Positions 8,390 through 23,240 of a DNA stretch of 24,000 bases are shown here, piece after piece (the stretch's first letter is position 1; each line of letters starts with the position of its first letter). The notes beneath the pieces were generated by a model. It was not told the origin of the DNA and did no database searches. It was given only the letters and a program-made list of their open reading frames with translations. Made by a program: the position numbers and the translations under genes. The stretch is from Mechercharimyces sp. CAU 1602 (GTDB taxonomy: Bacteria > Bacillota > Bacilli > Thermoactinomycetales > JANTPT01), in NCBI RefSeq assembly GCF_024753565.1, contig NZ_JANTPT010000001.1, forward strand, positions 1,173,969 to 1,197,968, written 5' to 3'.

Positions 8390-8410
8390 TATATATCCTT
8401 TTATCTGTAA

Positions 8411-8827
8411 TTACTTAAGATACTCATCTAGAAACTCATCGAATGAATCGCATATGGGCTCTGCTGCCTCTGGATTATGTGAAATGAAGTAGTCAGTATC
8501 CAAAAATATGATTGTTGGGTCTCCGCCTCGATAATCGAAACAGAAGTGATTTTTGCCTACATCCCATGCAAAAGGGAAAATAAACTCAAACCCTTCATCA
8601 TCTTCTAGTGCTTCTTTATATTTATCAATCATTTGATCAAGGGTAAACACTTTATAGAAGTACTGTTCTTCACCATCCTTCGTTATAATCTCAATTTCAT
8701 CTTCAACCACAGCTCCATGAAACTCGGATAACCATTCGTAAAACCTGTTTGGAAAAGATATATTTAATGTTGATAAAGATTGCTTCACTTTGTGTACATC
8801 CAAACTCTTGTTTACTGATTCCCACAT
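8411..8827 (-). CDS. SMI1/KNR4 (SUKH-1) family immunity protein
   Basis: Carries ...ISFPNRFYEWLSEFHGA... and ...FAWDVGKNHFCFDYRGGDPTIIFLDTD..., typical of SUKH immunity proteins. I set the start at ATG 8827, which has GGAGG 9 nt upstream and lies 14 nt after the toxin stop. The longest ORF (8878) would add a basic RKRRKRNRR stretch read from the toxin poly-Lys tract. Confidence 0.8.
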   Translation of the reverse strand: MWESVNKSLDVHKVKQSLSTLNISFPNRFYEWLSEFHGAVVEDEIEIITKDGEEQYFYKVFTLDQMIDKYKEALEDDEGFEFIFPFAWDVGKNHFCFDYRGGDPTIIFLDTDYFISHNPEAAEPICDSFDEFLDEYLK

Positions 8828-8840
8828 GCGTGACAGCCTC

Positions 8841-10067: not shown

Positions 10068-10729
10068 ACACCACCAAATACAACAATTGATGCATGAACA
10101 ATAGAAGCTAGCAACGCAATAATAAAGAAGCCCACGACGGATGACAAAATGAGTACAATCACTGACTTCCAGAATTTTATGCTGTGAGCTTTACTTAACC
10201 CTATGAAAAGAAGAATAAGCGTATGAAAAAATGCTAGAATATGAAGCACGGAAACGATTAAATGAATGTAAAACCGTATAGGCTGGTCAACACGCATACT
10301 CCCATATGCATGGTAGTAAATAAACCCTTTCGTAAAAAAATTACCGTATATAGCGATTTCAATTACCCATAAAATCAACGTCATTATCAGGGGAAGGGAT
10401 GCAAATAAGATCATCTGATAAATTCTCTTCCATGTGCCTTCACCTTTAAGCATATTGCCTATCCACTTGAACAAAGGCACAAAAACAACGATTAATACAA
10501 GACCATTTAGTAGTCCGTTGAACAAAACTGTTGCTAGTACTTGTAGCAAGTCTAGATTTAACCCTATGTAGTTTTTGAATGCGCCGTTGAATGCAACTAC
10601 CAATCCCAAGAGGTATGTTAATAGAAACAGCTTCCATAATGGTATAGACTCATTGTTTAACTCCTCAAAAAAAGAGCGAGGAGACAATAAAAAGTTTCGC
10701 ATTTTAGACAGCATATACAAGTAGCTCAC
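10064..10729 (-). CDS. Yip1-domain-like polytopic membrane protein
   Basis: 221 aa with about 5 hydrophobic helices and an N-terminus ...LLSPRSFFEELNNESIPLWK.... It is translationally coupled to the toxin gene. The start is uncertain among GTG 10729, TTG 10720 (GAGG 8 nt upstream) and ATG 10714. Confidence 0.6.
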   Translation of the reverse strand: MSYLYMLSKMRNFLLSPRSFFEELNNESIPLWKLFLLTYLLGLVVAFNGAFKNYIGLNLDLLQVLATVLFNGLLNGLVLIVVFVPLFKWIGNMLKGEGTWKRIYQMILFASLPLIMTLILWVIEIAIYGNFFTKGFIYYHAYGSMRVDQPIRFYIHLIVSVLHILAFFHTLILLFIGLSKAHSIKFWKSVIVLILSSVVGFFIIALLASIVHASIVVFGGV

Positions 10730-10767
10730 CTCAAAAATAGTAATAATATTTACTTTCTTAAAGAGAT

Positions 10768-10796
10768 ATTATAGCATTTGTTGGTATAACATGGAA
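10768..10796 (-). promoter_or_regulatory. Promoter candidate with an extended -10 for the yip1-toxin-immunity operon
   Basis: Minus strand has TTCCAT (10796..10791), a 17-nt spacer ending in TGC, then TATAAT (10773..10768), giving TGcTATAAT. It lies ~40 nt upstream of the operon start. Confidence 0.45.
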
Positions 10797-10833
10797 GTAT
10801 AATAATTCCAGTTCCACACACAAAAGGATATGA

Positions 10834-10879
10834 GTAATAGTATCTATAAGGTATTCAAATACCTTATAGATACTATTAC
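10834..10879. repeat. 46-bp perfect palindrome
   Basis: GTAATAGTATCTATAAGGTATT-CA-AATACCTTATAGATACTATTAC with 22-bp arms and no mismatch. It lies between the arpU-like stop (10897) and the toxin-operon promoter. No T-tract follows on either strand. Confidence 0.9.
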
Positions 10880-10896
10880 ACAACCTACCCGCCCCC

Positions 10897-11331
10897 TCAC
10901 ACAACCCCCAACATCACCGCCATCTTCCGCATCGCTTCCTTCTTAATCCTCCTATACGTACTCTCACTCCACATCAACCTCGCCTGCACCTCTTTATCCA
11001 GCCGATTCTGCATGTACCGTTCCTCTAACACCAGCCGCTCATCAATATCCAACACAGCCAATGACCGCTCAATCCGCTTCACCTCTACCTCCATCCACTC
11101 TAGCCGTTCTCTCTGTTCTGTTCGCCGAATCCCATATTGCTCTGTGGTCGACACATACGCACTATAACCAGGGCTTGTCCGCTCTTCATAGACAGGGGTG
11201 CAAGACGGGAACTCTTCTTCCATCTGCAAGGTTGCTTTCCAGGTACGATAGTTTTTCAATAGCTCCTCTACCTTTCGCCGATGCACAGGCTTCTTGTTCG
11301 CTGCTTTAGTCCCTGCTGCTACCGATTCCAT
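10897..11331 (-). CDS. ArpU-family phage late transcriptional regulator (sigma-region-4-like)
   Basis: 144 aa with ...VEELLKNYRTWKATL...RIERSLAVLDIDERLVLEERYM...STYRRIKKEAMRKMA. Size, motifs and position match ArpU/RinA-type regulators. Confidence 0.7.
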   Translation of the reverse strand: MESVAAGTKAANKKPVHRRKVEELLKNYRTWKATLQMEEEFPSCTPVYEERTSPGYSAYVSTTEQYGIRRTEQRERLEWMEVEVKRIERSLAVLDIDERLVLEERYMQNRLDKEVQARLMWSESTYRRIKKEAMRKMAVMLGVV

Positions 11332-11364
11332 ACCTGCACCCCCATATTGGATTAATTGTAACGG

Positions 11365-12123
11365 TTACTTATATACCGGATAGTCGATCTCTACTTCCAA
11401 CTCATCCATCCCATTGTCTCTACAAATCCTGTAAATCATGTTCGACTGCTTCTCTGCCCATCCAATATCCGTCGCATACTGATGTACCCCTGGATTCGCT
11501 GGATTGTACAACATCTTATAGAGCGTATCCTGATCATGGCTGGAATACGTATACCAGTCAGAGATGCACTTGGCTCCGCCAATGATCGCCTTCTTCACGT
11601 TGTTCCAGTTCTTCTGTTTCGCGAATGCGGCACCGAGATTTGATGCGTCGCCATCATATGCCGCTAATCCAAACACATTGTAATACCCTTCATAGTCCTT
11701 TACCGTACCATTTGCCAGCGCACTTGCCCCGTGGTTCGTTTCCAGAAGCGAGTGTGCAATCAGATACACTGGATCCACCCCATATATGTCTGCCGCCGCC
11801 TTAAATGTGAAACCTGTCCCTTCCAACGAGCCCTTTCCTATCAACGCCTGATCCAACTGCTCTATGCTGACATCCATCTGTTTTGACAATAGAATGTGTT
11901 GGAAAATCTTCGAGGGCGACATCGTATTTGACGGCGACACCTTCTCTATGACCTCTTCTAATGTCGCACTACGGAATCCGCCCAACTCATCATCCCATAC
12001 GATCGCTCCATTCGTGCCATACTCCTTGTGAATCTCACTTGCCTGCTCCACTGTCAAATCACAAGATGTAAACCCGAATGATCGCAACTCTCCGCTCAAC
12101 AACTCTCCTACTTTGAATCCCAC
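11365..12123 (-). CDS. GH73 N-acetylglucosaminidase-domain protein
   Basis: Carries ...AAADIYGVDPVYLIAHSLLETNHGASALANG...YYNVFGLAAYDG...QYATDIGWAEK, i.e. a glucosaminidase (LytD/FlgJ-type) domain with the catalytic Glu context. Confidence 0.75.
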   Translation of the reverse strand: MGFKVGELLSGELRSFGFTSCDLTVEQASEIHKEYGTNGAIVWDDELGGFRSATLEEVIEKVSPSNTMSPSKIFQHILLSKQMDVSIEQLDQALIGKGSLEGTGFTFKAAADIYGVDPVYLIAHSLLETNHGASALANGTVKDYEGYYNVFGLAAYDGDASNLGAAFAKQKNWNNVKKAIIGGAKCISDWYTYSSHDQDTLYKMLYNPANPGVHQYATDIGWAEKQSNMIYRICRDNGMDELEVEIDYPVYK

Positions 12124-12129
12124 CCCCCA

Positions 12130-12330
12130 TCATCTCCCTTTTAATTTAACTCTCGCATTCCTTTCTGGTTTCAATCCTCCATCAATCCTTTGTATAAATC
12201 CCAGTCGATCTCCCCTACCGTCCTGTACCGATACCCACACACCCGACACCTTCAAATTCACCTCCCGATCCTCCCCGCAAACCTCGCATCTATTCTCGAA
12301 TGCCACGGGATTATAGTAGATGACGGTCAT
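12130..12330 (-). CDS. Hypothetical protein (66 aa)
   Basis: ORF tightly packed between rusA and the glucosaminidase gene. Contains CEVC. Confidence 0.45.
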   Translation of the reverse strand: MTVIYYNPVAFENRCEVCGEDREVNLKVSGVWVSVQDGRGDRLGFIQRIDGGLKPERNARVKLKGR

Positions 12331-12753
12331 TCAATTTACCTCCCCTACAGTGACTTCTGCTCGTTCTTCTGCCTTGGAAATAACAGATACCTTCTCAATC
12401 TCCAGCCTCCGAACTTGTTTGTCATCCTCGTACGCAATCCCGTTCATTCCGTCCAGAATCGACTTACTGTAGTTGTCCACGTCGCCCTCTCTCTTGCCAT
12501 GCAGGTACACCCTTATTTCCACCCTCACAGGGGCTTTCGTGGGACGGACACCCGCCCCTTTCGCCGCCCATCCCACGTTGTTCTTGTATGCGAGATATCG
12601 CTTGGCATTAGGTCGTGTCCATTTCCCCCTCTGCGTCATCCGCACCGCTGGGACAGGACGACCCACTACCGTGAAGCTAATCATCCCATCACGCACAAAT
12701 CGCCGACTCTTCTTTCCTTGTTTGAACACTTGAAATCCGTAGCGTTCAACCAT
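12331..12753 (-). CDS. rusA: RusA-family Holliday junction resolvase
   Basis: Carries ...GRPVPAVRMTQRGKW...YLAYKNNVGW...DVDNYSKSILDGMNGIAYEDDKQV.... Confidence 0.85.
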   Translation of the reverse strand: MVERYGFQVFKQGKKSRRFVRDGMISFTVVGRPVPAVRMTQRGKWTRPNAKRYLAYKNNVGWAAKGAGVRPTKAPVRVEIRVYLHGKREGDVDNYSKSILDGMNGIAYEDDKQVRRLEIEKVSVISKAEERAEVTVGEVN

Positions 12754-12949
12754 TGATAATCTCCTCCTCAGTGGCTAATCTCAGATACTTCGTTGCATAA
12801 TAACCCCTGTAACCTTCGAGTAAAACAACCATGGTATCTTCAGTCCATCTCTGCTCATCCGATCTACAAATCCACACCTTGCCACGGAATTTTTTCAAAT
12901 CCGCCTCCCCACACCCGTACATGACCACCCGATCACCTGTCTTCAGCAT
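12746..12949 (-). CDS. Hypothetical protein
   Basis: ATG 12949 is preceded by GAGGGGGAG 7 nt upstream and overlaps the upstream stop (ATGCTGA). The longest ORF starts at 12985. Confidence 0.5.
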   Translation of the reverse strand: MLKTGDRVVMYGCGEADLKKFRGKVWICRSDEQRWTEDTMVVLLEGYRGYYATKYLRLATEEEIING

Positions 12950-13182
12950 TGTTCTGCTCCCCCTCTTTCCTTGTAGCTGACCCACCGCTCCAGAAATTCG
13001 TCAGCTTCATCTCCCAGCAAGACAATGATGTTTGCCCATTCCTCATATTCGAAATCCCATCTTGAACACTTCAAAATGACCAAGACCTCATTCTCAATCG
13101 TATTTCCTCGGTTCACCCAAGCCACATCTGCTAGGGAGAATATCTCATTCACACCTCGGAAGACCATAGACACAGGTTCCAT
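12943..13182 (-). CDS. Hypothetical protein
   Basis: 79-aa ORF in the tightly packed early operon. Confidence 0.5.
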   Translation of the reverse strand: MEPVSMVFRGVNEIFSLADVAWVNRGNTIENEVLVILKCSRWDFEYEEWANIIVLLGDEADEFLERWVSYKERGGAEQC

Positions 13183-13186
13183 CCGC

Positions 13187-13435
13187 TCACCTCAGATCAA
13201 ATTTAAATGTCGATAGGTCTGCCTCCTCGATCTCGTTCGGGCTCATCCGTCGCCACCGCCCTGTGACTCTGATAAAAGACTCCTCATCTCTTATCTCAAT
13301 GATCTCAAGTATTTTGTATATCTGTTCTTCATCCTGGTTCTTATAGACGACATCACCCTTCTTAAGTCTCGAATAGTTCAACATTGGTCGAGTGAATGTT
13401 TCCGGTTTATATTCGTCAATCCAGTTAATCTTCAT
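13187..13435 (-). CDS. Hypothetical protein
   Basis: 82-aa ORF with GGAGGA 4 nt upstream of ATG 13435. Confidence 0.55.
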   Translation of the reverse strand: MKINWIDEYKPETFTRPMLNYSRLKKGDVVYKNQDEEQIYKILEIIEIRDEESFIRVTGRWRRMSPNEIEEADLSTFKFDLR

Positions 13436-13711
13436 TTCTTCCTCCCCTCATGTCCTCCACCTCTACCGAATGCATTCCTTTCTTCTGCACTTGTGGGCAC
13501 TCAACCTCATCGTTTCGCCAATCCTTATACCTCAGCGCCTCTTTCAAACCGTGAGAGAGCTTGTAATACTCCCGCCATAGGCAAAGAAAAAATTCTTCTC
13601 ATAGCAGAGTGCGCCTCCACTAGGATCTGACTCAATAATACGTATCCCTTTCTTCTCAATTGTGTGCCTCATCCAATATTGGCTCAAGATCCTCCAGGCG
13701 GAAAGTCACCT

Positions 13712-13963
13712 CTACACCCCCTTCTCAAAGTAAGCCATTGCTAATGTCCAAGTAACTAGAGCAATTGATGAACCGACGAACATGATTAGGAGCAAAATTA
13801 CGGAGTCATCACTTAAATCCGCATTCCCTATAGAGAAATAAAACACGACGGAAGCTACCATGAATGCGATTATCAGTACTTGAAACACTTCCACCTCTTC
13901 ACGCCCCTCTCGCTCCACGTTTTCGTCTGCTGATCCGCCCTTGCCGAGCCAAGTCCATAACAA
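13712..13963 (-). CDS. Small membrane protein (2 predicted TM helices)
   Basis: Hydrophobic segments are VLIIAFMVASVVFYF and ILLLIMFVGSSIALVTWTLAMAYF. The true start may be GTG 13894 (GAGGGG 9 nt upstream), just past the upstream stop at 13899. Confidence 0.5.
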   Translation of the reverse strand: MLWTWLGKGGSADENVEREGREEVEVFQVLIIAFMVASVVFYFSIGNADLSDDSVILLLIMFVGSSIALVTWTLAMAYFEKGV

Positions 13964-14150
13964 GTAGCGTCACCTCGTCTGGGTCTCTGTCCAGCGTCTT
14001 TGCAATATCGTGAAGGCTCTGTCCATCCCGCCACATCTCCACCACCTGTGGTACCTCCGCTTCGTCCCAAACAAAATCGAGGTCTTCCAACGCCACATAC
14101 AACAATCTGCGCTCAAACGGTGTAGCAACAGGCATCTCTCTTCCAGTCAT
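13899..14150 (-). CDS. Small HTH-like protein
   Basis: Carries ...VVEMWRDGQSLHDIAKTLDRDPDEVTLLVMDLARQGRI..., a sigma-region-4/resolvase-type HTH. Confidence 0.5.
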   Translation of the reverse strand: MTGREMPVATPFERRLLYVALEDLDFVWDEAEVPQVVEMWRDGQSLHDIAKTLDRDPDEVTLLVMDLARQGRISRRKRGARGA

Positions 14151-14154
14151 CTAT

Positions 14155-15048
14155 CTATTTCCCTCCCCATAAACGATAGTCTGGTCCCTGTACGGGATAA
14201 ATTCGACCATGTGACATCCCAAACAGCCTCGATGTTGCTCCTCCTCCAATCCGCTCTTCTAGGGTCTCTGAATCCTCGTTTGAGCTGTAGATAATCGGCA
14301 ACTTGGATTTATATCGCTCATTGATGATTTGAAAATACATGCTTTGTTTTGATTCGGTCGGGTTGCTCTTACCGATGTCATCCCAGACTAAGACAGGAAC
14401 CCTTGTCACCAGCCCTAGAATGCGATTCATCTCCACTCCCCCGTCACCGATCATCTTGGACTGCATCAACTCGTCCATGAATAACACGTCTGAGATGATC
14501 AACACTCGCCTCCCCTTTGCAATCAAGTCCTTCGCCATCGCCACTTGAAGATGCGTTTTCCCTAGCCCATAGTTGTTATGCTGTTTCTTCTTCTCTCTTC
14601 TCTCAGAAAGATTCTTGATAGATTTCATCCTCTGCTCACCGAACTTAGCAATAAAACCGATGCTTCGCCGATGCTCGTTCTTATCTTGTAATAGCTTAGG
14701 AAAGTCCCTCAAGTATTCCTGAGACGCATTGTACAGTGTTTTCTGCGCCCCGTTGCTCACTTTGTACTGATCAAACCAAGCCTCTTTGAATTCATCGGGA
14801 ATCATCGCTGCATGAAGCCTCTGCTTGGCTTGCTCACGAATCGAACATTCACACTGCCCAAGGTACTTCCACCTATCATCTGGATCGAGAAGGTACCCCA
14901 TCCCCTTACACGTTGGGCATTTAGTTCCCGAAGAGTCCGTCGAACTGGTCGTAGTATCCCTGTCCCGTTTCTTCTGCTTGAGCGCTTCGACCCTTGCCTG
15001 CAGTTGTTCCATCATCGGAGCTATGCTCTTCATCCCGTCTGCCTGCAT
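14155..15048 (-). CDS. DnaC/IstB-like AAA+ helicase loader
   Basis: Walker A is YGLGKTHL and Walker B is VLVWDDIG. An N-terminal CPTCKG...CEC motif is present. GGAGG lies 7 nt upstream of ATG 15048. Confidence 0.8.
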   Translation of the reverse strand: MQADGMKSIAPMMEQLQARVEALKQKKRDRDTTTSSTDSSGTKCPTCKGMGYLLDPDDRWKYLGQCECSIREQAKQRLHAAMIPDEFKEAWFDQYKVSNGAQKTLYNASQEYLRDFPKLLQDKNEHRRSIGFIAKFGEQRMKSIKNLSERREKKKQHNNYGLGKTHLQVAMAKDLIAKGRRVLIISDVLFMDELMQSKMIGDGGVEMNRILGLVTRVPVLVWDDIGKSNPTESKQSMYFQIINERYKSKLPIIYSSNEDSETLEERIGGGATSRLFGMSHGRIYPVQGPDYRLWGGK

Positions 15049-15838
15049 GAGACCCTACCTCCTTCGCTTTCATGGCTCGAATGACCGTGTCACAGTAAGC
15101 AAACGACTTGATGCTATCTCGTTTATGCTTCGGCTTGTAGTGGTCAAAGGCATGGTCAATCCCTCGTCTAACCTCATCAAGCGTAAATTTATCGTCGATC
15201 AACTCTTGAATTAATTGCATATCTTTTGCACACAACAGTGTCCCTTTGTTCCGTCTCTGAATAAAGTAAGCTTCTATCTCTTGATTCATGATTGGCGTTG
15301 ATGGAAGATCATTGTCCAACCAACGATCATCGTTTTGTTGTTTTGTTGGTTTGTTTTCTTTTCTTTTTTCTTCTCTTCCGTTAGTTTCTTTTAGGAGTGA
15401 GCCCTCACTGAGTCCTCCGTGAGTATTCAATGAGTGATTATCGTTGGATTCTTCAACCTCTATTTCTCCTCTCTCTTCTACCGGATTTTCAAGTGGATCT
15501 GCTTTACTAGGGGCAGGTAATTTTGATGCGGTTGAGCGATTTATTGTTTGATGCTTCGAGAAATTAGGTAATTGGATATAGGTCTGTCCATCCACCTTAT
15601 ATGAATGGATCATTCCTTTATCTTCAAGCTGTTTTAACCATTCACTGACTTGTACATGAGTGATGTGTGAGTCATACGGAAACAAAAGTGAGCTAATCAA
15701 TGCAGGGTGTCCGCTCAGTCTTCCTTCATCGTCTGCATTGCTTATCAAGCCCATAAATGTCATCCTTGCCATCGGTTCGCACGTGCCTAACTTTTCATCC
15801 GTCCAATAGTTGGGGTCAATCATTCGTTTCCGAGCCAT
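14921..15838 (-). CDS. Phage replisome organizer / DnaD-domain replication protein
   Basis: The N-terminus is MARKRMIDPNYWTDEKLGTCEPMARMTFMGLISNADDEGRL.... The C-terminus has a DnaD-like ...EAYFIQRR...LIQELIDDKFTLDEVRRGIDHAF.... The 3' 128 nt overlap the loader gene. Confidence 0.7.
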   Translation of the reverse strand: MARKRMIDPNYWTDEKLGTCEPMARMTFMGLISNADDEGRLSGHPALISSLLFPYDSHITHVQVSEWLKQLEDKGMIHSYKVDGQTYIQLPNFSKHQTINRSTASKLPAPSKADPLENPVEERGEIEVEESNDNHSLNTHGGLSEGSLLKETNGREEKRKENKPTKQQNDDRWLDNDLPSTPIMNQEIEAYFIQRRNKGTLLCAKDMQLIQELIDDKFTLDEVRRGIDHAFDHYKPKHKRDSIKSFAYCDTVIRAMKAKEVGSHAGRRDEEHSSDDGTTAGKGRSAQAEETGQGYYDQFDGLFGN

Positions 15839-15889
15839 TTTCTTTCCCCTCCCCCTAGATGAGGGCGACCGTAGCCGCCCTTTGCTTAC

Positions 15890-16093
15890 TTAAATCCGTG
15901 TCAGCTCCCGTGCGTACACAATTCCAATATTCGTACATCCATAGACCACTTCGTCATTCTGTCGACTCACCCAGCGCACCCCGCATTGCTCCTTGACACC
16001 CTCGACTACCAGCTTGTCCCCTCCCTTTAGATAATTCAGTCCTTCTCCCTCTCTATCGAACGTCCAGCGCACCTTATACTCATTTAATCCCAT
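15890..16093 (-). CDS. Hypothetical protein
   Basis: ATG 16093 has GAGGGGG 7 nt upstream. The longest ORF starts at 16135. Confidence 0.45.
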   Translation of the reverse strand: MGLNEYKVRWTFDREGEGLNYLKGGDKLVVEGVKEQCGVRWVSRQNDEVVYGCTNIGIVYARELTRI

Positions 16094-16293
16094 TGATCTA
16101 CCCCCTCTAGTAGAAATAGCTCCTCCAGTGCCCACTCGCTTCCCCTCACAAGGCTTGTAATTGCCTCAGTTTCCCCTAGCGCACATGCCTGTTTAATTGC
16201 TATTAAGTCACTTTCTAGCATTTCGTAGTAGTAGAGCCTCCGTTCAGATAATGGCGTATCTTTTATAAGCTGATTCCCACCCCACTCCTGCAT
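16084..16293 (-). CDS. Hypothetical protein
   Basis: ATG 16293 is preceded by AGGAGGTGGAGGAAG. The longest ORF starts at 16344. Confidence 0.45.
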   Translation of the reverse strand: MQEWGGNQLIKDTPLSERRLYYYEMLESDLIAIKQACALGETEAITSLVRGSEWALEELFLLEGVDQWD

Positions 16294-16306
16294 CTTCCTC
16301 CACCTC

Positions 16307-16525
16307 CTATAAGGACTCTTGTGCCGCTCGAACGGCTTGTCCAATCTTCATGCCTTTGTATAGAAGCCTATACTCCCCTTGGTAGTGGTTATAGACTTCC
16401 CATCTGTGTTTACCTTCACGGATCATCGTCCAGTGATCGAAGTGTCCATCCTCGCTGACAAGCTGAAAGTAGAACATCATCCCGTCGTAACGGCTGTGCG
16501 ACTCATGGGTTCGAATCTCACTCAT
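16307..16525 (-). CDS. Hypothetical protein
   Basis: 72-aa ORF whose start overlaps the upstream stop (ATGAGTGA). Confidence 0.5.
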   Translation of the reverse strand: MSEIRTHESHSRYDGMMFYFQLVSEDGHFDHWTMIREGKHRWEVYNHYQGEYRLLYKGMKIGQAVRAAQESL

Positions 16526-17348
16526 TGAGCCCCAACACCTCCGCTACCTCGTCCTCTTTCGGATCACTCACATCCAACACTTCAACTTCTTTCGCTTCGG
16601 CTTCATCTTCCTCAGATGGTGGTGCTATTAGCTCAAGTAGCTCCTCCTTGGTGTTGCTTTTGATATGCCCAATGAGCTCGTCCATTTCTGCTACAGTCGG
16701 CTCTCTGTCTCCAGGGTCTATGATCACATTGAGAAGCTGAACGATCTGTTCATCTGTGAGCCCCTTGTTTCGTCCGATTTGAAGGGCTTCTTTCTTCTTG
16801 AGAACGAGCGGATCTTGTTTCGACTGTTGTTGTGGTCTCTGCTGTTGATGCTGGTACTCTTGATGGTTGATCTCCTCGGCGGATACTTCACCGAATCCCA
16901 CCAAGTCGAGAATGGCACGGTTTTTCGCCCTCGTAATTGCGTGCGCTCGGATGTTGTGGATGGTTTGCTGCTTCTTTACTGGTTTTCCTTGTCTGTCTAC
17001 CTTTTCATCAAAGGAGCACGCCCCATCTGCCTCTTGATATGCCCCGGTTCCAAGATGGACGGCTCTTGCTTTTGCTAGCCAAGCGATGATCTTTCCATCT
17101 TCCTTCAAAGGCTCATCTTGGACAATTTCACACGATAGATTGAAGAAGCGTTGAACCTTGCGAACAAAGGATTTCTTGGGGTGACGTTTTTCTCCGATCT
17201 TTTGAAAGTCCTCATCCTGTCCTATCTTCTGTTTCAGCTCTTGATAAAGTCTGAACTGATTTACCGTCTCTTCAACTGATCCCGCTGGGGTAATCAGTCC
17301 AGCGGGTTGTTGCTGTTCAATGACTTGGACGCTATTCTCCTTGCTCAT
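16518..17348 (-). CDS. Hypothetical early protein with an acidic C-terminal tail; possibly a ssDNA-binding/annealing protein
   Basis: 276 aa, located in the recombination/replication module. Carries ...HNIRAHAITRAKNRAILDLVGFGEVSAEE... and a Q-rich then acidic tail. I recognise no definitive family, so the function is a guess from context. Confidence 0.6.
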   Translation of the reverse strand: MSKENSVQVIEQQQPAGLITPAGSVEETVNQFRLYQELKQKIGQDEDFQKIGEKRHPKKSFVRKVQRFFNLSCEIVQDEPLKEDGKIIAWLAKARAVHLGTGAYQEADGACSFDEKVDRQGKPVKKQQTIHNIRAHAITRAKNRAILDLVGFGEVSAEEINHQEYQHQQQRPQQQSKQDPLVLKKKEALQIGRNKGLTDEQIVQLLNVIIDPGDREPTVAEMDELIGHIKSNTKEELLELIAPPSEEDEAEAKEVEVLDVSDPKEDEVAEVLGLNE

Positions 17349-17467
17349 TTGACCTCGCCCCCAGCGGCTTTACAAAGTAGCTCGTCCAAACAGTCGTCAC
17401 ACACGTACAACTTTTCCCCGACTTGCGTGATGTGCTCTTCTTCCTCACAGTAGTAGCAACCGCTCAT
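17345..17467 (-). CDS. 40-aa CxxC...CxxC zinc-ribbon-like micro-protein
   Basis: Below the ORF-track length cutoff. Translation is MSGCYYCEEEEHITQVGEKLYVCDDCLDELLCKAAGGEVK. It has ATGA overlaps with both neighbours (17467 and 17345..17348). Confidence 0.45.
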   Translation of the reverse strand: MSGCYYCEEEEHITQVGEKLYVCDDCLDELLCKAAGGEVK

Positions 17468-17754
17468 CAGAACATCCCTCCTGGATCTGTTTCGCTCTCT
17501 ACAGACGGTTTTAACTCTCCCCAGCCCGATCTCCAGTCAACCATATACTTATAGTCGTCAATCCGTTTTACTTTCACGCTCCACATACCATAGCTGTAGG
17601 GATCATATCCCGTCTCGCAAACGATCTGAAAGACAAGCCTGTTGATCGATTCCTTGTCAACTATCCTCTCGTAACAGTTGACCCATACTGTATGTTCTAA
17701 ATGTCCACCACTGTCGCTATAGCAAGTACACGTTAGTTGATCAGTAATTTCCAT
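17467..17754 (-). CDS. Hypothetical protein, paralog of 17766..18038
   Basis: ATG 17754 has GAGGAG 7 nt upstream and lies 11 nt after the upstream stop. It shares ...DKESI[ND]R..FQ...Y.PY.Y.M..V.V.R...Y.V.W.S with its neighbour. Confidence 0.55.
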   Translation of the reverse strand: MEITDQLTCTCYSDSGGHLEHTVWVNCYERIVDKESINRLVFQIVCETGYDPYSYGMWSVKVKRIDDYKYMVDWRSGWGELKPSVESETDPGGMF

Positions 17755-17765
17755 CTCCACACTCC

Positions 17766-18038
17766 TCAATCGCATGTTGTCCATGAACCCCACGTGACAA
17801 TGTATTGATCCTCCTTCATTCTCTCTACTACCACGTTGAACATGTCGTATCCGTATGGGCTATATCGAACGGACTCAGCTACTTGAAAAGCAAATCTATC
17901 AATAGACTCTTTGTCCTCTTCAATTGGATCGCTAACCGTCACATGCGCCTCATGTTGCAGGTATCCTCCGATCGAAACATAGCGCTTATTGTGATGGGTG
18001 ACTTCGAATGTGGCTGTTTTCAAGTGATCATCTCCCAT
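17766..18038 (-). CDS. Hypothetical protein, paralog of 17467..17754
   Basis: 90-aa ORF. See the paralog motif above. Confidence 0.55.
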   Translation of the reverse strand: MGDDHLKTATFEVTHHNKRYVSIGGYLQHEAHVTVSDPIEEDKESIDRFAFQVAESVRYSPYGYDMFNVVVERMKEDQYIVTWGSWTTCD

Positions 18039-18207
18039 TCTCAGTAGGCTGACGATACCCTCAATGACATCTCCGTCACTTATGACGGAAAAACATACAA
18101 AGAGAGTAATTGGAAAAGTTTAAAAAGGATGTTGTTCGAAAAGGCACTGATCCCCATCATTGTGGGTATATTGTGTATCATCATCACGTCAATAGTGAAA
18201 GATTGAC

Positions 18208-18306
18208 TCAGCGGCGGTTGTCCATAAGACATTGGATCACAAGTGAAATCAAAACTGCTATTACAAAGTTGAGCGCAATCAAGGCTCCGTCAGTCATACA
18301 CCCCAT
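18208..18306 (-). CDS. 32-aa hydrophobic micro-peptide
   Basis: GAGGAGG lies 8 nt upstream of ATG 18306. Translation is MGCMTDGALIALNFVIAVLISLVIQCLMDNRR: one TM helix plus a charged C-terminus. Confidence 0.4.
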   Translation of the reverse strand: MGCMTDGALIALNFVIAVLISLVIQCLMDNRR

Positions 18307-18385
18307 GAGTTAAGCCTCCTCTTGTCCTATCACTTGAAATATGATAGGATTCTGTTAGTTGAACTTTTGGAAGCTCAAGTTTCCG

Positions 18386-18496
18386 CTACCGCTCCAATCG
18401 GTGGCGGTTTTTCATTTGTTCCAGGCTCTTTTGGCGTAATTGATTCATCTGTTCGCTCCAACTGAGCTTGCGCCATTCCCCAACCTTGACGTTCAT
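18386..18496 (-). CDS. 36-aa basic micro-protein
   Basis: AGGGAGGTG lies 5 nt upstream, and the start forms an ATGA overlap with the 18493 stop. Translation is MNVKVGEWRKLSWSEQMNQLRQKSLEQMKNRHRLER. Confidence 0.35.
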   Translation of the reverse strand: MNVKVGEWRKLSWSEQMNQLRQKSLEQMKNRHRLER

Positions 18497-18693
18497 TTGA
18501 TCACCTCCCTTTCTTTCTCGTTCTTTTTAATAAGCTGATGTGCACATGCTTCACTGCACAATAGAAACTCCCCATCGTACAGTTCAAAAAACTCCTCATC
18601 CACAGCTCTCATAGATATTCGAATCCACCAAGCGTTGCAATCTTTCTCCGTCTTCCCACAGATGTCACATTCGTAGTACGTTCCCATTGCCAT
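18493..18693 (-). CDS. Small Cys-rich (zinc-ribbon-like) protein
   Basis: ATG 18693 has AAAGGAG 8 nt upstream and lies 14 nt after the antirepressor stop. Translation begins MAMGTYYECDICGKTEKDCNAWW...LLCSEACAHQ. The longest ORF starts at 18771. Confidence 0.5.
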   Translation of the reverse strand: MAMGTYYECDICGKTEKDCNAWWIRISMRAVDEEFFELYDGEFLLCSEACAHQLIKKNEKEREVIK

Positions 18694-18706
18694 GTGACCA
18701 GCTCCT

Positions 18707-19432
18707 TTATTGTGCTTTTTGCTGATTGAGCATCTTGTCCGCGACACGAATCGCATCATCCAAGCGATCAACTCTTGATAAGTACTCCGGCATGGTCAGC
18801 TTCTTGATGCTATGTTTGTATTTGTAGTTCTCAATCAACATGGTCAGGTTGGTACGATACGCTGTGTTAAACGCCTGCCTGAAATCATGCCACCCTTTCT
18901 GGAAGCCTAGTCCATTATCTGTCGAATACTTCCTCACCATGGCGTTTAAGCGTTGTTGCGGATCACCAATGGTATCGAGCTTGTCCAAGTTGTCGATACG
19001 ATGATGCGCTGCCTCTGCTTTGTCCTCCAATCGTTTGATTCGCTTCTCGTTGTCGACGTTCTGTTGAGCGAGCATCAGAATCAATTCAGATTGGCTCGGT
19101 TGTTCCTTTTGATATTGTCCGGTTTTTCGGATGGTTGGGATAACTTCATGTGTAATCCACCGTTTGAATGTTTTCGCTTCGGGTTTGCGACTTCTCAGGA
19201 TGAGTGTATATAGTCCTGGTTCATTGATAGCAGCTACTTCTTGCTTGCCTCCAAGGGTGTCCACTAATACCGACCCCCTTTCATCATCATCCAATCGATA
19301 AACGGCATCCCGATGATTGCTAATATCCAGCACCTCACATACATCCTTAGCGACAAACCAAGGTTCCCCGTTTTGGGTGAGCGTTCTCACATCTGAACCG
19401 TTGTAGTCGAACACTCGCTGAAGCTTGTCCAT
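18707..19432 (-). CDS. Prophage antirepressor (Bro-N domain + C-terminal antirepressor domain)
   Basis: The N-terminus ...FDYNGSDVRTLTQNGEPWFVAKDVCEVLDISNHRDAV... is Bro-N-like. Confidence 0.8.
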   Translation of the reverse strand: MDKLQRVFDYNGSDVRTLTQNGEPWFVAKDVCEVLDISNHRDAVYRLDDDERGSVLVDTLGGKQEVAAINEPGLYTLILRSRKPEAKTFKRWITHEVIPTIRKTGQYQKEQPSQSELILMLAQQNVDNEKRIKRLEDKAEAAHHRIDNLDKLDTIGDPQQRLNAMVRKYSTDNGLGFQKGWHDFRQAFNTAYRTNLTMLIENYKYKHSIKKLTMPEYLSRVDRLDDAIRVADKMLNQQKAQ

Positions 19433-19510: not shown

Positions 19511-19741
19511 TCACTTTGGATTAGGTTCATTTTTCTGTTCGTTTTGAACAATACTCCTATAGCAGGAAGACATTGCATTGTTCAAATTAAGAACAAATGG
19601 ATTTTTCTTGGCATATTCTTCACGAAACCACTCTTCTTGCTCTTCATCACTCATCCATGAAAATATAGAATGTACTATGCAGCGAGTATTCCCAAATTTA
19701 TATTCTTTAGGCTTTTTATAGTCTGAATTACTTTCCTTCAT
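19511..19741 (-). CDS. Hypothetical protein
   Basis: ATG 19741 has AGGTGGG 7 nt upstream. Translation begins MKESNSDYKKPKEYKFGNTRCIVHS...MSDEEQEEWF.... The longest ORF starts at 19852 and would overlap cro. Confidence 0.5.
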   Translation of the reverse strand: MKESNSDYKKPKEYKFGNTRCIVHSIFSWMSDEEQEEWFREEYAKKNPFVLNLNNAMSSCYRSIVQNEQKNEPNPK

Positions 19742-19824
19742 TTTGAATCCCACCTGCTTTGTAACCTCTATGGGATATCTTATGTGATGTGGACATAAGT
19801 ACAGGCATTCAAATCCTCCTATTT

Positions 19825-20046
19825 TCATGCAATCGTATGATTCTTTTCGCATCTAGTCTCTTCAAAAAAATTTTCCCACCTAAAGCCTAAAGCATTTGCT
19901 ACTTTTTTTGCTGAAGTAATACTGGGGTTCCTAATACCTTGCTCGTACTGACTGTAAGTTGATCTATGCACTCCAGCTTTATCTGCTATATCTTGTTGCG
20001 TATATCCCTGGCTCTTTCGAATATCTACTAGCCATTTCCGTTTCAT
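19825..20046 (-). CDS. Cro-like XRE-family HTH regulator
   Basis: 73 aa with ...SQGYTQQDIADKAGVHRSTYSQYEQGIRNPS.... It is divergent from the cI-like gene. Confidence 0.85.
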   Translation of the reverse strand: MKRKWLVDIRKSQGYTQQDIADKAGVHRSTYSQYEQGIRNPSITSAKKVANALGFRWENFFEETRCEKNHTIA

Positions 20047-20070
20047 TAACTCATCATGCCTCCCTGTATG

Positions 20071-20126
20071 TTTCTTTTCGCATCATTCATTAAATTCATT
20101 ATATGATGCGAAAAGAAACAAGTCAA
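20071..20126 (-). promoter_or_regulatory. Early (Pcro/PR-like) promoter with an operator inverted repeat
   Basis: Minus strand has TTGACT (20126..20121), a 17-nt spacer, then TATAAT (20103..20098). A perfect 16-bp inverted repeat TTTCTTTTCGCATCAT (20071..20086) / ATGATGCGAAAAGAAA (20103..20118) straddles the -10 and start site. Confidence 0.7.
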
Positions 20127-20182
20127 CAACATTTTTGGTTCTATTCGAAACTTATTTTCCGTTAAAATCCAATCCTTTTCCC

Positions 20183-20211
20183 TTTACTTGATGCTATTAG
20201 CATCATATAAT
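20183..20211 (+). promoter_or_regulatory. Repressor (PRM-like) promoter with an operator palindrome
   Basis: TTTACT (20183..20188), a 17-nt spacer, then TATAAT (20206..20211). The palindrome GATGCTATTAGCATC (20190..20204) lies in the spacer. It shares the ATGATGC/GCATCAT half-site with the Pcro operator. Confidence 0.6.
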
Positions 20212-20250
20212 GATGATATGCCTATATAGACTTGGAAGGAATGAATTCAA

Positions 20251-20613
20251 TTGAAACTTGGTGATCGGCTTAGAAAGTTACGCAGTAGACGAAAAATATC
20301 GCAACAGGAACTTTCTCACCGTTTAAATATAAATCGAGTCACATACAGCCAATATGAAACCAATCGCAGACATCCTGATTACGAGACTCTGCAAAAACTG
20401 AGTGAGTTTTTCTCAGTTTCTACAGATTATCTTCTGGGTCGCGAAGAACACCAACCCACTCTTTTGAGCATGGAAGAGTTTCTTGATCAAGATAACATCA
20501 TGTGGGATGAGAACACTCCTGCACATCCTGAAGGAATCGAGTATTTTAAACAGCTTTTAAAGCTCGCTAAATTAGAAGCCCAAAAAAACACAAACGATAA
20601 TGAATCGAAATAG
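20251..20613 (+). CDS. CI-like XRE-family repressor
   Basis: TTG start with GGAAGGA 10 nt upstream. Translation begins MKLGDRLRKLRSRRKISQQELSHRLNINRVTYSQYETNRR...STDYLLG. It is directly followed by int. Confidence 0.85.
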   Translation: MKLGDRLRKLRSRRKISQQELSHRLNINRVTYSQYETNRRHPDYETLQKLSEFFSVSTDYLLGREEHQPTLLSMEEFLDQDNIMWDENTPAHPEGIEYFKQLLKLAKLEAQKNTNDNESK

Positions 20614-20622: not shown

Positions 20623-22158
20623 ATGAACAGACCAAAGAATCTCGATGTATTTATCTATCTCCGCAAATCACGAACAGATGAAGAAGAGGAGCGAAAAGCT
20701 ATTGAGGAAGGTAATCATTTTGATACTTTAGATAGGCACCGCAAACAACTATTAGATCTTGCGCGTAAAGAGGGGCACTCAATCATTGAGATTTTTCAGG
20801 AAGTGGTATCCGGAGAATATATCATCGAGCGACCTGAAATTCAACGCATGCTTCGCCAAGTAGAGTCTGGAGCAGTCGAGGCAATCTTAATTGTGGACTT
20901 AGATCGTTTAGGGCGTGGTGATATGTTTGACATGGGCAGTATTTATCGTGCTGTTCAGCATAGTGATACTTTAATAGTTACTCCTAATGAGATTATAGAC
21001 CCAAACGATGAAGGCGCAGAGCTTCTTTTTGGAGTTAAATCACTTATTTCTCGTGAAGAATTAAAATCCATCACAAAACGAATGCAAAGAGGCAGGATTG
21101 CTTCAGTCAACGAGGGGAAATCCATCTCAAAGAAACCCCCATATGGCTACCTACGGGACAACAATCATAAATTATACCCTGATCCAGATACAGCCTGGGT
21201 CGTCAAAAAAATATTCGAGTTGTGCGCTACAGGCTTCGGCAGATTAAGTATCCTCAATGAATTGCAAAACTTAGGCATCCCTAGCCCTGGTAACGCTCCC
21301 TATTGGAATGTAGTTACTATAAAAAACATACTGATGAACGAAGCCTACCTTGGACACATTGTATGGGGGAAGACTAAGTTTAAGAAAATAAATGGAAAAA
21401 CAACCTCAAAAAAATTACCAAAAGAAAAGTGGAATATAAAAGAAAACGCTCATGAGCCCCTAATCGACCAAGAGTTATGGGACAAAGCTCATGCCTCGTA
21501 TGGTCTGGATAGCCCACGAACTAAACCAGGCAAGACCTTGAAAAACCCATTAGCTGGAGTTCTCTACTGTCGTATTTGCGGATACTCAATGCATAGAAAA
21601 TCAGATAAAAACAACTGCGCCATGGTTAGGTGCTTGAGCCCTGGCTGTATAGGTATACAGAAGTCAGCCTTACTAAGGCTAGTGGAAACTAGGATCTTAG
21701 AATCTGTAGAACAGACAATAACGAGTTACAAATTGGGTGCAGTAGAAACTCAAGAAGATGATTCTTCACTTTCCATGAAAAAAGCCGTGATTATCAAGAA
21801 AGAAGGAGAGATTAAAAAACTCCAGAACCAAAAAGAGAAATTGCATGACCTTCTCGAACAAGGAATATATGACGTTAGTACATTTTTGGAGAGACAATCT
21901 AAGCTTACCGAAAAAATAAAGGCAAACTCTGACCATATAAAAAACCTCAAAGATGAGGTTGATCTGAAGACAGAGAGTCAAAAAAAACAAAAAGAATTAA
22001 TACCTAAATTACAAAATATAACTGATAGATACGAAGATACAACTGATGTGGAAGAAAAAAACAAGCTACTAAAGTCGGTGATTAAAAAGGTTTTGTTTAG
22101 TCGAACAAAGCGAACAAAGAAGGATGACTTTGAGTTAGAAATATTCTTCCACATATAA
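20623..22158 (+). CDS. Large serine recombinase (phage integrase, SPbeta SprA-like)
   Basis: Carries VFIYLRKSRTDEE (catalytic Ser context), ...IVDLDRLGRG..., the recombinase-domain PPYGY, the Cys cluster CRICGYSM...C..VRC..PGC, and a long K/E-rich coiled-coil tail. ATG 20623 is preferred (AGGTGAG upstream); the ORF track starts at GTG 20614. Confidence 0.9.
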   Translation: MNRPKNLDVFIYLRKSRTDEEEERKAIEEGNHFDTLDRHRKQLLDLARKEGHSIIEIFQEVVSGEYIIERPEIQRMLRQVESGAVEAILIVDLDRLGRGDMFDMGSIYRAVQHSDTLIVTPNEIIDPNDEGAELLFGVKSLISREELKSITKRMQRGRIASVNEGKSISKKPPYGYLRDNNHKLYPDPDTAWVVKKIFELCATGFGRLSILNELQNLGIPSPGNAPYWNVVTIKNILMNEAYLGHIVWGKTKFKKINGKTTSKKLPKEKWNIKENAHEPLIDQELWDKAHASYGLDSPRTKPGKTLKNPLAGVLYCRICGYSMHRKSDKNNCAMVRCLSPGCIGIQKSALLRLVETRILESVEQTITSYKLGAVETQEDDSSLSMKKAVIIKKEGEIKKLQNQKEKLHDLLEQGIYDVSTFLERQSKLTEKIKANSDHIKNLKDEVDLKTESQKKQKELIPKLQNITDRYEDTTDVEEKNKLLKSVIKKVLFSRTKRTKKDDFELEIFFHI

Positions 22159-22200
22159 ACCCTCACAGAGCCTCCATACTTTTCTTCAGAACTCCCCTAA
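22150..22200. other. Approximate prophage/host junction (attR-type site)
   Basis: The integrase stop is at 22156..22158. The MurF-like frame appears recognisable from about 22172 (LHTFL...). The core dinucleotide cannot be defined without the other junction. Confidence 0.45.
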
Positions 22201-22258
22201 ATCAAACGGGTATCATCTAAATCTAAATACTGTCTCGTTCCTTCCTCGATATCTAACT

Positions 22259-23197
22259 ATGCTTAACAAATCCCATCGTGTCCTCCTGTTGGAAATGGGG
22301 ATGAAGTCCCTTGGCAACATTGCTCGTCAATGTGCTGTTGTACGCCCCCAACTCGGGGCGATTACGAATGTAGGCGAAGCTCACGTAGGAAGCCTTGGTG
22401 GGATGGATACTGTCGTCAAAGCTAAGCAGGAACTGATCAACGGTATGCGTAAAAACTCCACGATCTTTCTCAATGCAGATGACAAACGTTCCACTAAATT
22501 ACAAACAAATCGCTATCCTGGGACTGTAAAAACATTTTCTATTCATAATAAAGCGCATCTGCGGGCTAGTAACATCCGTTATACAACCAAGGGAATGTCC
22601 TTTCATCTCACCATGAATGGAGTCAAGTGCGGGGAAATGACTGTCCCCATGATCGGGGTTCACAACGTATACAATTGTTTACCGGCCATTGGTATCGCAA
22701 CAGAGATGGGGTTGTCGTTAGCGGAAATTCGTAGTGGTCTGCTACGAATGAGTGCTCCCAAAATGAGAATGCAACCAATTTCCGCAGGTAGAGGTAGACT
22801 GTTAATTAACGATGCATGGAATGCTAGTCCCTCTTCCATGAAAGCAGGAATGGAAGTATTTGCGCAAATTGCTCCTCATCGACCCGCCATCGCTGTTTTA
22901 GGCGATATGCTCGAGCTAGGTGCTCATTCTTCCTATTGGCATAAGCATATAGGTAAAATGGTCGCCACCATGCCTCTCTATCGGCTAGTTACCGTCGGCA
23001 CCCATGCCAAAAAAATTAGTGATACAGCCATTCAAAACGGATTTGCTCGCAATCGCGTGATTCACTTTCAAAGTTCCAATCAAGTTGCCTCCTACTTGGC
23101 CCGCGTCGCACCTGAAAAAGCCGCAATATACTTTAAAGCCTCGCGCAAATTTCGTTTCGAAAATATCATTCGATCACTTCTGCAACGGCATAACTAA
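22259..23197 (+). CDS. murF: MurF-like Mur ligase, 3' two-thirds only (5'-truncated by the prophage; likely a split gene)
   Basis: Carries LLEMGM...ITNVGEAHVGSLGG...NDAWNASPSSMKAG...VLGDMLELG...FKASR. The P-loop GxxGKT and the N-terminal domain are absent. Homology continues in frame upstream of the first ATG to about 22172. Confidence 0.8.
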   Translation: MLNKSHRVLLLEMGMKSLGNIARQCAVVRPQLGAITNVGEAHVGSLGGMDTVVKAKQELINGMRKNSTIFLNADDKRSTKLQTNRYPGTVKTFSIHNKAHLRASNIRYTTKGMSFHLTMNGVKCGEMTVPMIGVHNVYNCLPAIGIATEMGLSLAEIRSGLLRMSAPKMRMQPISAGRGRLLINDAWNASPSSMKAGMEVFAQIAPHRPAIAVLGDMLELGAHSSYWHKHIGKMVATMPLYRLVTVGTHAKKISDTAIQNGFARNRVIHFQSSNQVASYLARVAPEKAAIYFKASRKFRFENIIRSLLQRHN

Positions 23198-23225
23198 ACC
23201 CCTGCATCTATATAGCAGGGGTTTT
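23195..23225. terminator. Bidirectional rho-independent terminator
   Basis: AAA-CCCCTGC-ATCTATATA-GCAGGGG-TTTTT, between the convergent murF-like and glycosyltransferase genes. Confidence 0.8.
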
Positions 23226-23240
23226 TCTTTGTACTTTTTA

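Follow-up and report, generated by a model that had tools for sequence, protein, structure and literature searches.

A serine-integrase prophage inside a MurF-like ligase gene of Mechercharimyces: a candidate gene-intervening element of the SPbeta/skin type

The subject of this study is a junction between phage and host DNA in Mechercharimyces sp. CAU 1602, lying in a stretch of 24,000 nucleotides (contig NZ_JANTPT010000001.1, positions 1,173,969 to 1,197,968) which we refer to as the window. Most of the window is prophage, ending with the gene of a large serine integrase; beyond it lies the 3' part of a gene for a MurF-like ligase (of a kind described below as A-type), followed by a convergent gene for a GT4 glycosyltransferase. 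An earlier sequence-only reading of the same DNA proposed that a prophage with an SprA-like serine integrase is inserted inside a MurF-like Mur-ligase gene, and that such a gene might be split and reconstituted by excision. The insertion is borne out, and the DNA to the left of position 22230 is a real prophage, with terminase, HNH, replication, Ant and cro/cI genes. The second idea has gained strong comparative support from four relatives in which both gene halves surround an integrase-carrying element and, judged from their sequences, would all rejoin in frame.

The fragment itself has the hallmarks of a Mur ligase cut short at its 5' end. Its ATG-started open reading frame (ORF), as called mechanically at 22259-23197, matches Pfam Mur_ligase_M (E 1.9e-30) and Mur_ligase_C (E 1.4e-12), and every central and C-terminal motif quoted in the sequence-only reading is found in the translation. 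On the TIGR01143 murF profile the match covers positions 107-418 of 418, so that the N-terminal domain and the P-loop are missing, again as had been claimed; the fragment alone scores 238.6, under the cut-off of 288.6, because it is truncated. What remains is 55% identical to residues 141-458 of an intact homolog (P0001 in our protein collection), has all catalytic motifs and 91 of 96 near-invariant family positions, and runs through 323 codons with no stop or frameshift. The frame was also said to stay open upstream of the first ATG, and it does so back to a stop at 22136-22138, although an open run of 30 codons is unremarkable by chance. Between that stop and 22259 there is no in-frame start, and the ATG at 22259 has no Shine-Dalgarno sequence. 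Downstream, an intrinsic terminator was read directly from the sequence, the terminator scan having missed it because its loop exceeds 8 nt.

The position at which host sequence begins can be read from the family. In 83 family members the distance from the first residue of the P-loop motif (G[ST]xGK[ST]) to that of the invariant NLNT motif is exactly 27 residues; the similarity of the window to these 83 sequences begins at N-L-N-T, nucleotide 22220, and a tblastn alignment with the intact P0001 begins at the same nucleotide, at residue 141. The stretch upstream of it in the window, SLHTFLQNSPKSNGYH, is unlike that of the family, TEMVASILKYRWSMVKTQG, and phage DNA makes up bases 22159-22228, the last 20 of which (22209-22228) form an attP arm. 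This arm is identical at 18 of 20 positions to the P arm of an element in Thermoflavimicrobium daqui, and at 19 of 20 to the reverse complement of the P' arm at the other end of that element. Because it matches both arms, we place the crossover at the dinucleotide AC at 22229-22230, which falls within the Thr codon of G-N-L-N-T, at about residue 144 and 71 nt 3' of the integrase stop. The junction is therefore inside the coding sequence, as first proposed, but further along: MurF similarity had been traced back to about 22172, some 15 nt after the integrase stop and near residue 120-125, whereas the part of it upstream of 22220 is spurious and the crossover lies 57 nt further downstream than 22172. 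The related suggestion that the integrase 3' end nearly touches the crossover, so that recombination might alter the integrase C-terminus, was rejected, since the integrase ORF is wholly on the phage side: 50 nt separate its stop from the att arm in the window, and 3-43 nt do so in the relatives.

The evidence that carries our interpretation comes from relatives in which both halves of the gene are preserved. These are Melghirimyces algeriensis DSM 45474, with a 9,894-bp element between the halves, T. daqui FBKL4.011 (9,005 bp), a metagenome contig from JGI, L003 (4,363 bp), and Shimazuella alba KC615 (4,357 bp). In each of them a 5' fragment of about 143 codons and a 3' fragment of about 320 codons lie in the same orientation, and joining the two in silico at AC, a check that the sequence-only reading had put forward, yields an in-frame G-N-L-N-T-x-x-(F/Y)-L-P in all four, with a complete ORF of 460 amino acids (aa) in T. 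daqui. The window integrase is 59% identical to that of T. daqui and 54% identical to that of M. algeriensis, both of which adjoin split murF-like genes. L005 is a further mini-element carrying the insertion, and several homologs in the family are short proteins that start at NLNT, with a serine recombinase of about 500 aa directly upstream each time. The same insertion site is used by at least two integrase lineages, which are 34-37% identical. In literature searches, neither a split murF nor elements of this kind in Thermoactinomycetaceae turned up.

The att sites reconstructed from these relatives have the form expected of a large serine recombinase. The sole sequence common to attL and attR within each of the four is a block of 5-10 bp containing AC, and the phage-side arm common to all attR sites reads GGTAT at -20, then N15, then AC at the centre. 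When attP is rebuilt, it forms in each case an inverted repeat with its best symmetry axis at AC, its arms agreeing at 14, 17, 13 and 17 of 20 positions; for the attB of the same four the figure is only 6-10 of 20. A symmetric attP of this kind is what serine-integrase sites are expected to show (PMC11722253). Such integrases use an attP of about 50 bp with an imperfect dyad around a non-palindromic dinucleotide, together with a less symmetric attB, and the sites of all four relatives follow this pattern; the window shows the P half only. The coordinates of the features in the window are collected in Table 1.

Table 1. Features of the window around the phage/ligase-gene junction (positions counted from the first nucleotide of the window)
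Feature	Position	Strand	Description
attR	22209-22250	+	P half-site 22209-22228 GGTATCATCTAAATCTAAAT; AC 22229-22230; host half-site B' 22231-22250
Host-derived 3' part of MurF-like (A-type) ligase gene	22229-23197	+	Thr codon of G-N-L-N-T to stop, 323 codons
Large serine integrase, 511 aa, SprA-like	20623-22158	+	Pfam Resolvase, Recombinase, Zn_ribbon_recom; alternative GTG start 20614
Phage spacer, integrase stop to attR	22159-22208	+	No family similarity; no terminator-like site in scan
Small conserved ORF, 76 aa, candidate recombination directionality factor	19511-19741	-	Second gene of early (cro) operon
CATACGAT motif	19832-19839	-	Upstream of small ORF, within 3' end of cro-like gene; resembles sigma-E -10 CATACAnT
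Intrinsic terminator 3' of MurF-like gene	23199-23229	+	CCCCTGC, 9-nt loop, GCAGGGG, TTTTT; read directly from sequence
Lysogeny switch	19825-20613		Cro-like helix-turn-helix (HTH) 19825-20046 (-); cI-like HTH 20251-20613 (+); Pfam HTH_3 both
Divergent sigma-70-like promoters of lysogeny switch	20098-20126, 20183-20211	-, +	Promoter scan, 11/12 and 10/12
Rest of visible prophage	1-19432	-	Ant, DnaD-like, DnaC-like, RusA, glucosaminidase, toxin/immunity moron, TnpB, ParB-methylase, HNH, small and large terminase; PHROG and Pfam scans

The integrase (P0177 in the protein collection) bears out its description as SprA-like: its best solved relative is SprA/YokA of SPbeta (9dxh, E 3.5e-45), matched over the full length (residues 8-499 against 14-517). 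Its Pfam matches are to Resolvase (residues 13-169, E 1.2e-19), Recombinase (E 4.6e-26) and, below the curated cut-off, Zn_ribbon_recom (E 0.001); its match to the phrog_95 integrase has E 6e-101. The nucleophilic Ser16 lies in IYLRKSRTD, a YxRxS context, and the motif is conserved in the relatives. The integrase gene and the cI-like gene probably share a transcript. A further large serine recombinase, P0208, 52% identical to the window integrase, is encoded on the same Mechercharimyces sp. CAU 1602 contig, and a second integrase element may therefore exist at another site of this genome. Among integrase relatives in IMG/VR (80 sequences, 35-55% identity) none has a MurF neighbour; they use other att sites and are for this reason uninformative on the murF site.

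The prophage around the integrase has no close relative among 50,697 deposited phage genomes, and its late genes and left end, attL, lie beyond window position 1. Several of its accessory genes deserve mention in their own right. A likely toxin/immunity moron occupies 8411-10729 on the minus strand, with a 408-aa protein carrying a C-terminal Colicin-DNase/WHH nuclease domain (8841-10067), an immunity-type protein of the SUKH-1/SMI1-KNR4 kind (8411-8878) and a Yip1-domain membrane protein (10064-10729). The terminase genes have as minus-strand neighbours a fusion of ParB_N and an N6/N4 DNA methyltransferase (3807-5231) and an HNH endonuclease (3151-3465), an arrangement typical of HNH-dependent cos packaging. 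A TnpB gene of the IS200/IS605 type (OrfB_IS605 with a Cas12f-like TNB domain) lies at 6835-7932 on the plus strand, opposite to the phage genes, and may be a sign of decay or a passenger; a similar TnpB is found near the split gene of M. algeriensis (L001 18333-19421).

Besides the integrase, one other phage gene recurs, the small ORF of 76 aa in the early operon, which corresponds exactly to the public gene call P0297. Homologs are present in every murF-splitting element, usually divergent from the integrase, and the integrase and the small ORF are the sole genes common to the window prophage and the T. daqui element, in which the small ORF is 4.3 kb from the integrase and does not adjoin it. 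Gene-intervening elements carry their own recombinase and usually a small directionality factor, and an integrase with this small ORF was found in all elements here; from this co-occurrence we infer that the small ORF encodes the cognate recombination directionality factor. The protein has no significant Pfam, PHROG or PDB match, the SprA-SprB fusion chain included. Its family comprises 39 representative clusters among 1.84 billion proteins, whose members are called 'hypothetical protein' where they are named at all, and contigs with related integrases seem also to carry homologs. In GenBank, the nearest phage integrase belongs to Bacillus phage 11143 and has a small-ORF homolog beside it in early-operon position, and the family is thus not restricted to elements that target murF. 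In this B. cereus phage (L100 4334-4543; GU233956.1 25833-26042) the homolog has 69 aa, and its gene opens the early operon and is transcribed divergently from those of the cI-like protein and the integrase.

The sequence-only reading had advised a search of the prophage for a small SprB-like factor with a sporulation-type promoter. A candidate was found, and in all elements, but it has no detectable similarity to SprB/YotN, and the promoter part of the prediction fared less well. A motif, CATACGAT, precedes the small-ORF start by 22-31 nt in three mini-elements (L003, L005, S. alba); in the window it precedes an out-of-frame ATG at 19808 by 24 nt and the start at 19741 by about 90 nt. As a hint of a sporulation promoter it is suggestive only. 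The ATG at 19808 (minus strand, region 19742-19852) has a strong ribosome-binding site, AGGAGGA, and opens a frame of 26 codons (MPVLMSTSHK...) that matches the N-terminus of the T. daqui small ORF (MPVQLSDLHK...); the conserved domain, beginning at 19741, is read in another frame. This points to a frameshift, or a shift to an internal start, in the window copy.

Outside the recombination genes, the elements of the relatives have little in common. The M. algeriensis element carries genes for a TetR regulator, a GTPase, a methyltransferase and an MFS transporter and no phage genes; this cargo looks like a resistance type. The same element (L001 400-6966) also holds two unknown ORFs and an excisionase-like HTH_17 protein, and its GTPase is EF-G/RF3-like, possibly acting in ribosome protection. 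The T. daqui element carries LanC-like and MFS fragments, that is, broken ORFs of a lanthionine cyclase-like protein and an MFS transporter (L097 3658-4756), which look like the remains of a decayed lantibiotic locus. The two 4.3-kb elements, of L003 and S. alba, contain unrelated small ORFs and no phage or transfer genes, and can be aligned to each other in the integrase region alone, not in the cargo.

Taken together, we lean slightly towards reading the window prophage as a gene-intervening serine-integrase element of the SPbeta/skin type, whose excision would rejoin the ligase gene. A temperate phage has been placed by its SprA-family integrase (20623-22158) into a fixed site of an A-type gene, with 22209-22250 as the resulting attR, and integration there parts about 143 N-terminal codons, with the promoter, domain 1 and the P-loop, from 323 C-terminal codons. 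Because serine-integrase recombination is conservative, excision at AC would restore the gene exactly, as was obtained in silico for the four related elements, the window showing one gene half. We think it probable that the murF 5' half lies at the left prophage end beyond the window, where one would expect a 5' fragment with ...AAY YTN AAY AC as its last bases and, directly after them, an arm like ATTTA(G/T)ATTTAGATGATACC. It also seems fairly likely that excision needs the 76-aa protein (19511-19741) as directionality factor in addition to the integrase. As to when excision might occur, the analogy with SPbeta/spsM and skin/sigK tentatively suggests a terminally differentiating mother cell; phage induction would yield the same rejoining as a by-product.

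The rates of change in the relatives bear directly on whether the split gene is still of use. We compared proportions of nonsynonymous (pN) and synonymous (pS) differences: the 3' half of L003 against L005 gives pN 0.098 and pS 0.75, the 5' half of L003 against S. alba gives pN/pS 0.12 at pS 0.64, and the split halves overall give pN/pS 0.12-0.13 at pS 0.64-0.75. For the integrases pN/pS is 0.16-0.17 (pS 0.57-0.65) and for the small ORF 0.17-0.30. Halves, integrases and small ORF thus all show ratios indicative of purifying selection. Since synonymous divergence is similar, co-inheritance of host gene and integrase fits these values, and since the frames are intact, so does continued use of the gene and of the excision machinery. 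Indeed, it is because the 4.3-kb elements keep only integrase and small ORF under such constraint, and the gene halves intact, that the host would appear to depend on excision for its ligase.

A more mundane explanation is plain insertional inactivation, in which G-N-L-N-T serves as a convenient conserved attB within a dispensable paralog, the gene is off in lysogens, the host has no programme that requires excision, and rejoining is a side effect of prophage induction or of loss of the element. Three cultured strains carry the gene split, so it is dispensable for growth, and the absence of a recognisable sporulation promoter at the A-type gene (see below) points the same way. In-frame rejoining follows automatically from conservative recombination and is therefore no proof of function by itself. 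The recombination module also moves horizontally between hosts, because the cargo differs and the att arms are nearly the same in hosts with ligases of only 53% identity. On the other hand, if the gene were dead and the recombinase without use, stops and frameshifts should have built up over such divergence, whereas both halves are open, with pN/pS of about 0.12 at pS of about 0.6-0.75, in three insertion-carrying lineages, and the 4.3-kb elements keep full-length integrases and the small ORF at pN/pS 0.16-0.30. We regard this inactivation as rather unlikely, though a serious contender.

What the gene might be used for depends on what kind of MurF it encodes. Here the sequence-only reading, which had suspected a paralog rather than the canonical enzyme, is supported: the split gene is a non-canonical MurF paralog, of A-type. 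Thermoactinomycetaceae have two related MurF-like types, A and B, which may co-occur, with up to four copies per genome among the matches listed; the best A-type homologs, about 55% identical, are all from this family. Neither type has the canonical loop GNxNNxIGxP, the A-type reading GNLNT(F/Y/L)x(F/Y)LP and the B-type (S/A)N(N/H)N(I/V/L)Axx(I/L)P, against GN(L/F/Y)NNEIG(L/V)P in canonical sequences of the same match lists. On TIGR01143, a 'subfamily' model and not an equivalog, full-length family members score 308-332 bits (P0001 328.6, P0012 332.2) against the cut-off of 288.6, and a canonical MurF scores 460. Like canonical MurF, the family has the three-domain Mur-ligase architecture, the P-loop and the motifs of the middle and C-terminal domains, and P0001 aligns with the E. 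coli MurF structure 1GG4 over residues 76-445; unlike it, the profile match starts only at position 43-44, which marks the N-terminal domain as divergent. No ddl or dcw genes were found nearby in six contexts examined.

A second murF-like gene elsewhere in the genome, which the sequence-only reading had suggested looking for, does exist in Mechercharimyces sp. CAU 1602 as an intact B-type paralog, P0136. No B-type gene of T. daqui or M. algeriensis is among the matches listed, and the split gene may be the only MurF-family ligase in these two; a tblastn search of the gathered loci with the canonical P0164 found A and B types only. MurF-like ligases lacking GNxNNxIGxP also occur in Thermincola, Desulfuribacillus and metagenome-assembled genomes of Clostridia (P0150-P0163), all endospore-forming Firmicutes, and the copy of Thermincola potens (L095 8001-9422) lies outside the dcw cluster, beside a yqeG-like phosphatase gene and aroE.

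The genomic surroundings of intact copies offer some clues to function. In Paenactinomyces guangxiensis (L007 2110-2370, 1-9800) the A and B genes are 6 kb apart, and their neighbours, in place of the ddl/dcw genes of canonical murF, encode GT2 and GT4 glycosyltransferases, rmlABCD-like proteins (dTDP-rhamnose), APS kinase and a sulfatase/phosphodiesterase. This cluster is reminiscent of the sps spore-polysaccharide genes of B. subtilis, and its B-type gene has a match to the sigma-K consensus, AC-N17-CATAAAATA, 44-72 nt upstream of the start. Upstream of A-type genes there is a conserved GAATAnGATA box. A palindrome, CATGGATCCATG (CATGGACCCATTG in L007), which comes after a conserved GAATAGGATA box in the region preceding the intact A-type gene (L096 ~9930-9960, L007 ~9935-9965), may be the operator of some regulator, and L096 has a 2-kb stretch with no called gene at 7980-10001. 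Thermoactinomycetaceae form endospores. It is conceivable that the A-type protein of this family acts in one cell type only, in making the spore cortex or some other polymer of the spore envelope, and is gated by DNA excision, and that the element lineage, from phage to 4.3-kb remnant, has been domesticated as a switch with a previously undescribed family of small directionality factors; as a whole, we consider this scenario doubtful and put it forward as speculation. In B. subtilis, Mur enzymes including MurF do rise under sigma-K late in sporulation (PMC10745906).

This leads us to the observations that weigh against an excisable, functional element in the window. The window holds the 3' half and attR only; a 5' half would lie outside it. 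A scan for attL with the pattern P-loop, 58 nt, AAYYTNAAYAC, N15, NTNCC retrieved T. daqui, S. alba and M. algeriensis and two chance matches among genome contigs, but not Mechercharimyces sp. CAU 1602; this could mean that the genome is outside the collection, that its attL does not fit the pattern, or that the 5' half has been lost. The same scan of metagenome contigs gave two chance matches only, and exact attP patterns of the window type were not found in viral or metagenome contigs. With the TnpB gene sitting inside it, the phage may be in decay, and the ligase fragment deviates at 5 near-invariant positions where the family median is 1. With regard to regulation, no consensus for sigma-E or sigma-K, nor for sigma-G or sigma-H, is common to the regions upstream of A-type genes in six genomes, and CATACGAT is not accompanied by a convincing -35 element and does not occur in the elements of M. 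algeriensis and T. daqui. Finally, the purifying selection seen on the gene halves could stem from recent independent insertions into intact genes.

Some of these points would equally suit an old truncation in CAU 1602, with the 5' half deleted or decayed, the prophage defective and the window fragment a pseudogene remnant, even where the split gene of relatives works: the failed attL retrieval, the TnpB insertion, the deviating positions and, in addition, the apparent frameshift in the N-terminal region of the small ORF relative to T. daqui and the absence of the fragment from the protein database, in which the integrase is present, so that the fragment may be annotated as a pseudogene. Against it stand the 323 codons with neither stop nor frameshift and the full set of catalytic motifs, and intact members from divergent genera deviate as much or more (P0045 at 5 near-invariant positions, P0086 at 7 and P0090 at 13). 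The integrase is also intact, as is the attR arm, with its 18-19 of 20 positions matching the T. daqui arms, and the attL scan is uninterpretable for a genome that may not be in the collection. An old truncation is in our view improbable.

One could also imagine that excision is not needed at all, with each fragment translated on its own and the N- and C-terminal pieces forming an active ligase together. Immediately ahead of the crossover, the phage arm of some relatives does contain an in-frame ATG or GTG, and called proteins begin at it (P0029, P0047, P0046); for T. daqui and M. algeriensis, moreover, no B-type gene is among the matches listed. However, the window has neither an in-frame start between 22136 and 22259 nor a Shine-Dalgarno sequence before the ATG at 22259, the cut falls within the ATP-binding domain just past the P-loop, and there is no sign of co-evolved interaction tags. 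A two-piece enzyme is hardly credible on this evidence.

Should excision be real and regulated, the gene-intervening element favoured here would add a peptidoglycan-precursor-type ligase to the targets, and Thermoactinomycetaceae to the families, in which genes are rebuilt by programmed DNA rearrangement. A single att site also displays, across different hosts, the whole of a proposed path from phage (the window) through cargo elements of 9-10 kb to remnants of 4.3 kb. On the practical side, the comparison defines natural serine-integrase attP/attB pairs to the crossover dinucleotide, and the small-ORF family, which is without annotation, provides a candidate cognate directionality factor; pairs of integrase and directionality factor are scarce and wanted for genome engineering (PMC12286644, PMC11722253). 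Moreover, a clade of non-canonical MurF-like ligases is flagged in spore formers.

The closest known parallel is SPbeta in spsM of B. subtilis. In both cases a temperate phage with a large serine integrase sits in the coding sequence of an envelope-biosynthesis gene of an endospore former, the integrase gene adjoins the att site (SprA itself being the best solved relative of the window integrase), and phage-derived mini versions exist. The sprB gene of SPbeta belongs to an early phage operon and has its own internal promoter (PMC4191935), and the candidate factor of the window is likewise in the early operon and may have an internal promoter of its own. The differences are that the target here is a MurF-like ligase rather than a sugar epimerase/dehydratase, that the host belongs to Thermoactinomycetaceae, that the window phage is unrelated and its small ORF lacks detectable similarity to SprB/YotN, and that excision and its timing are here predictions from sequence.

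The elements of 4.3-9.9 kb in S. alba, L003, T. daqui and M. algeriensis, in turn, look like the stage represented by skin in sigK, vfbin in spoVFB and vrin in spoVR: degenerate, with a serine recombinase kept, interrupting a coding sequence and inherited with the host. The targets of skin, vfbin and vrin are proven mother-cell sporulation genes with sporulation-specific excision, whereas we know our elements through their DNA sequence only. Skin, with about 48 kb, is also far larger than the smallest elements here, which have 4.3 kb. For non-phage cargo the nearest counterpart is gin in gerE of Bacillus cereus ATCC 10987, a non-phage element with the recombinase GirC and the small factor GirX (PMC5595907). 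The M. algeriensis element likewise combines non-phage cargo with a serine recombinase and a small ORF; gin, however, has 28.6 kb and three recombinases, and the elements described here have one recombinase and another target. A prophage within a coding sequence as a reversible switch is also represented by phi10403S of Listeria at comK, where, as Feiner et al. reportedly described in 2015, active lysogeny operates in vegetative cells inside phagosomes and is followed by re-integration. Since the murF mini-elements are without replication functions, a terminal cell type fits them better than a switch of the Listeria type.

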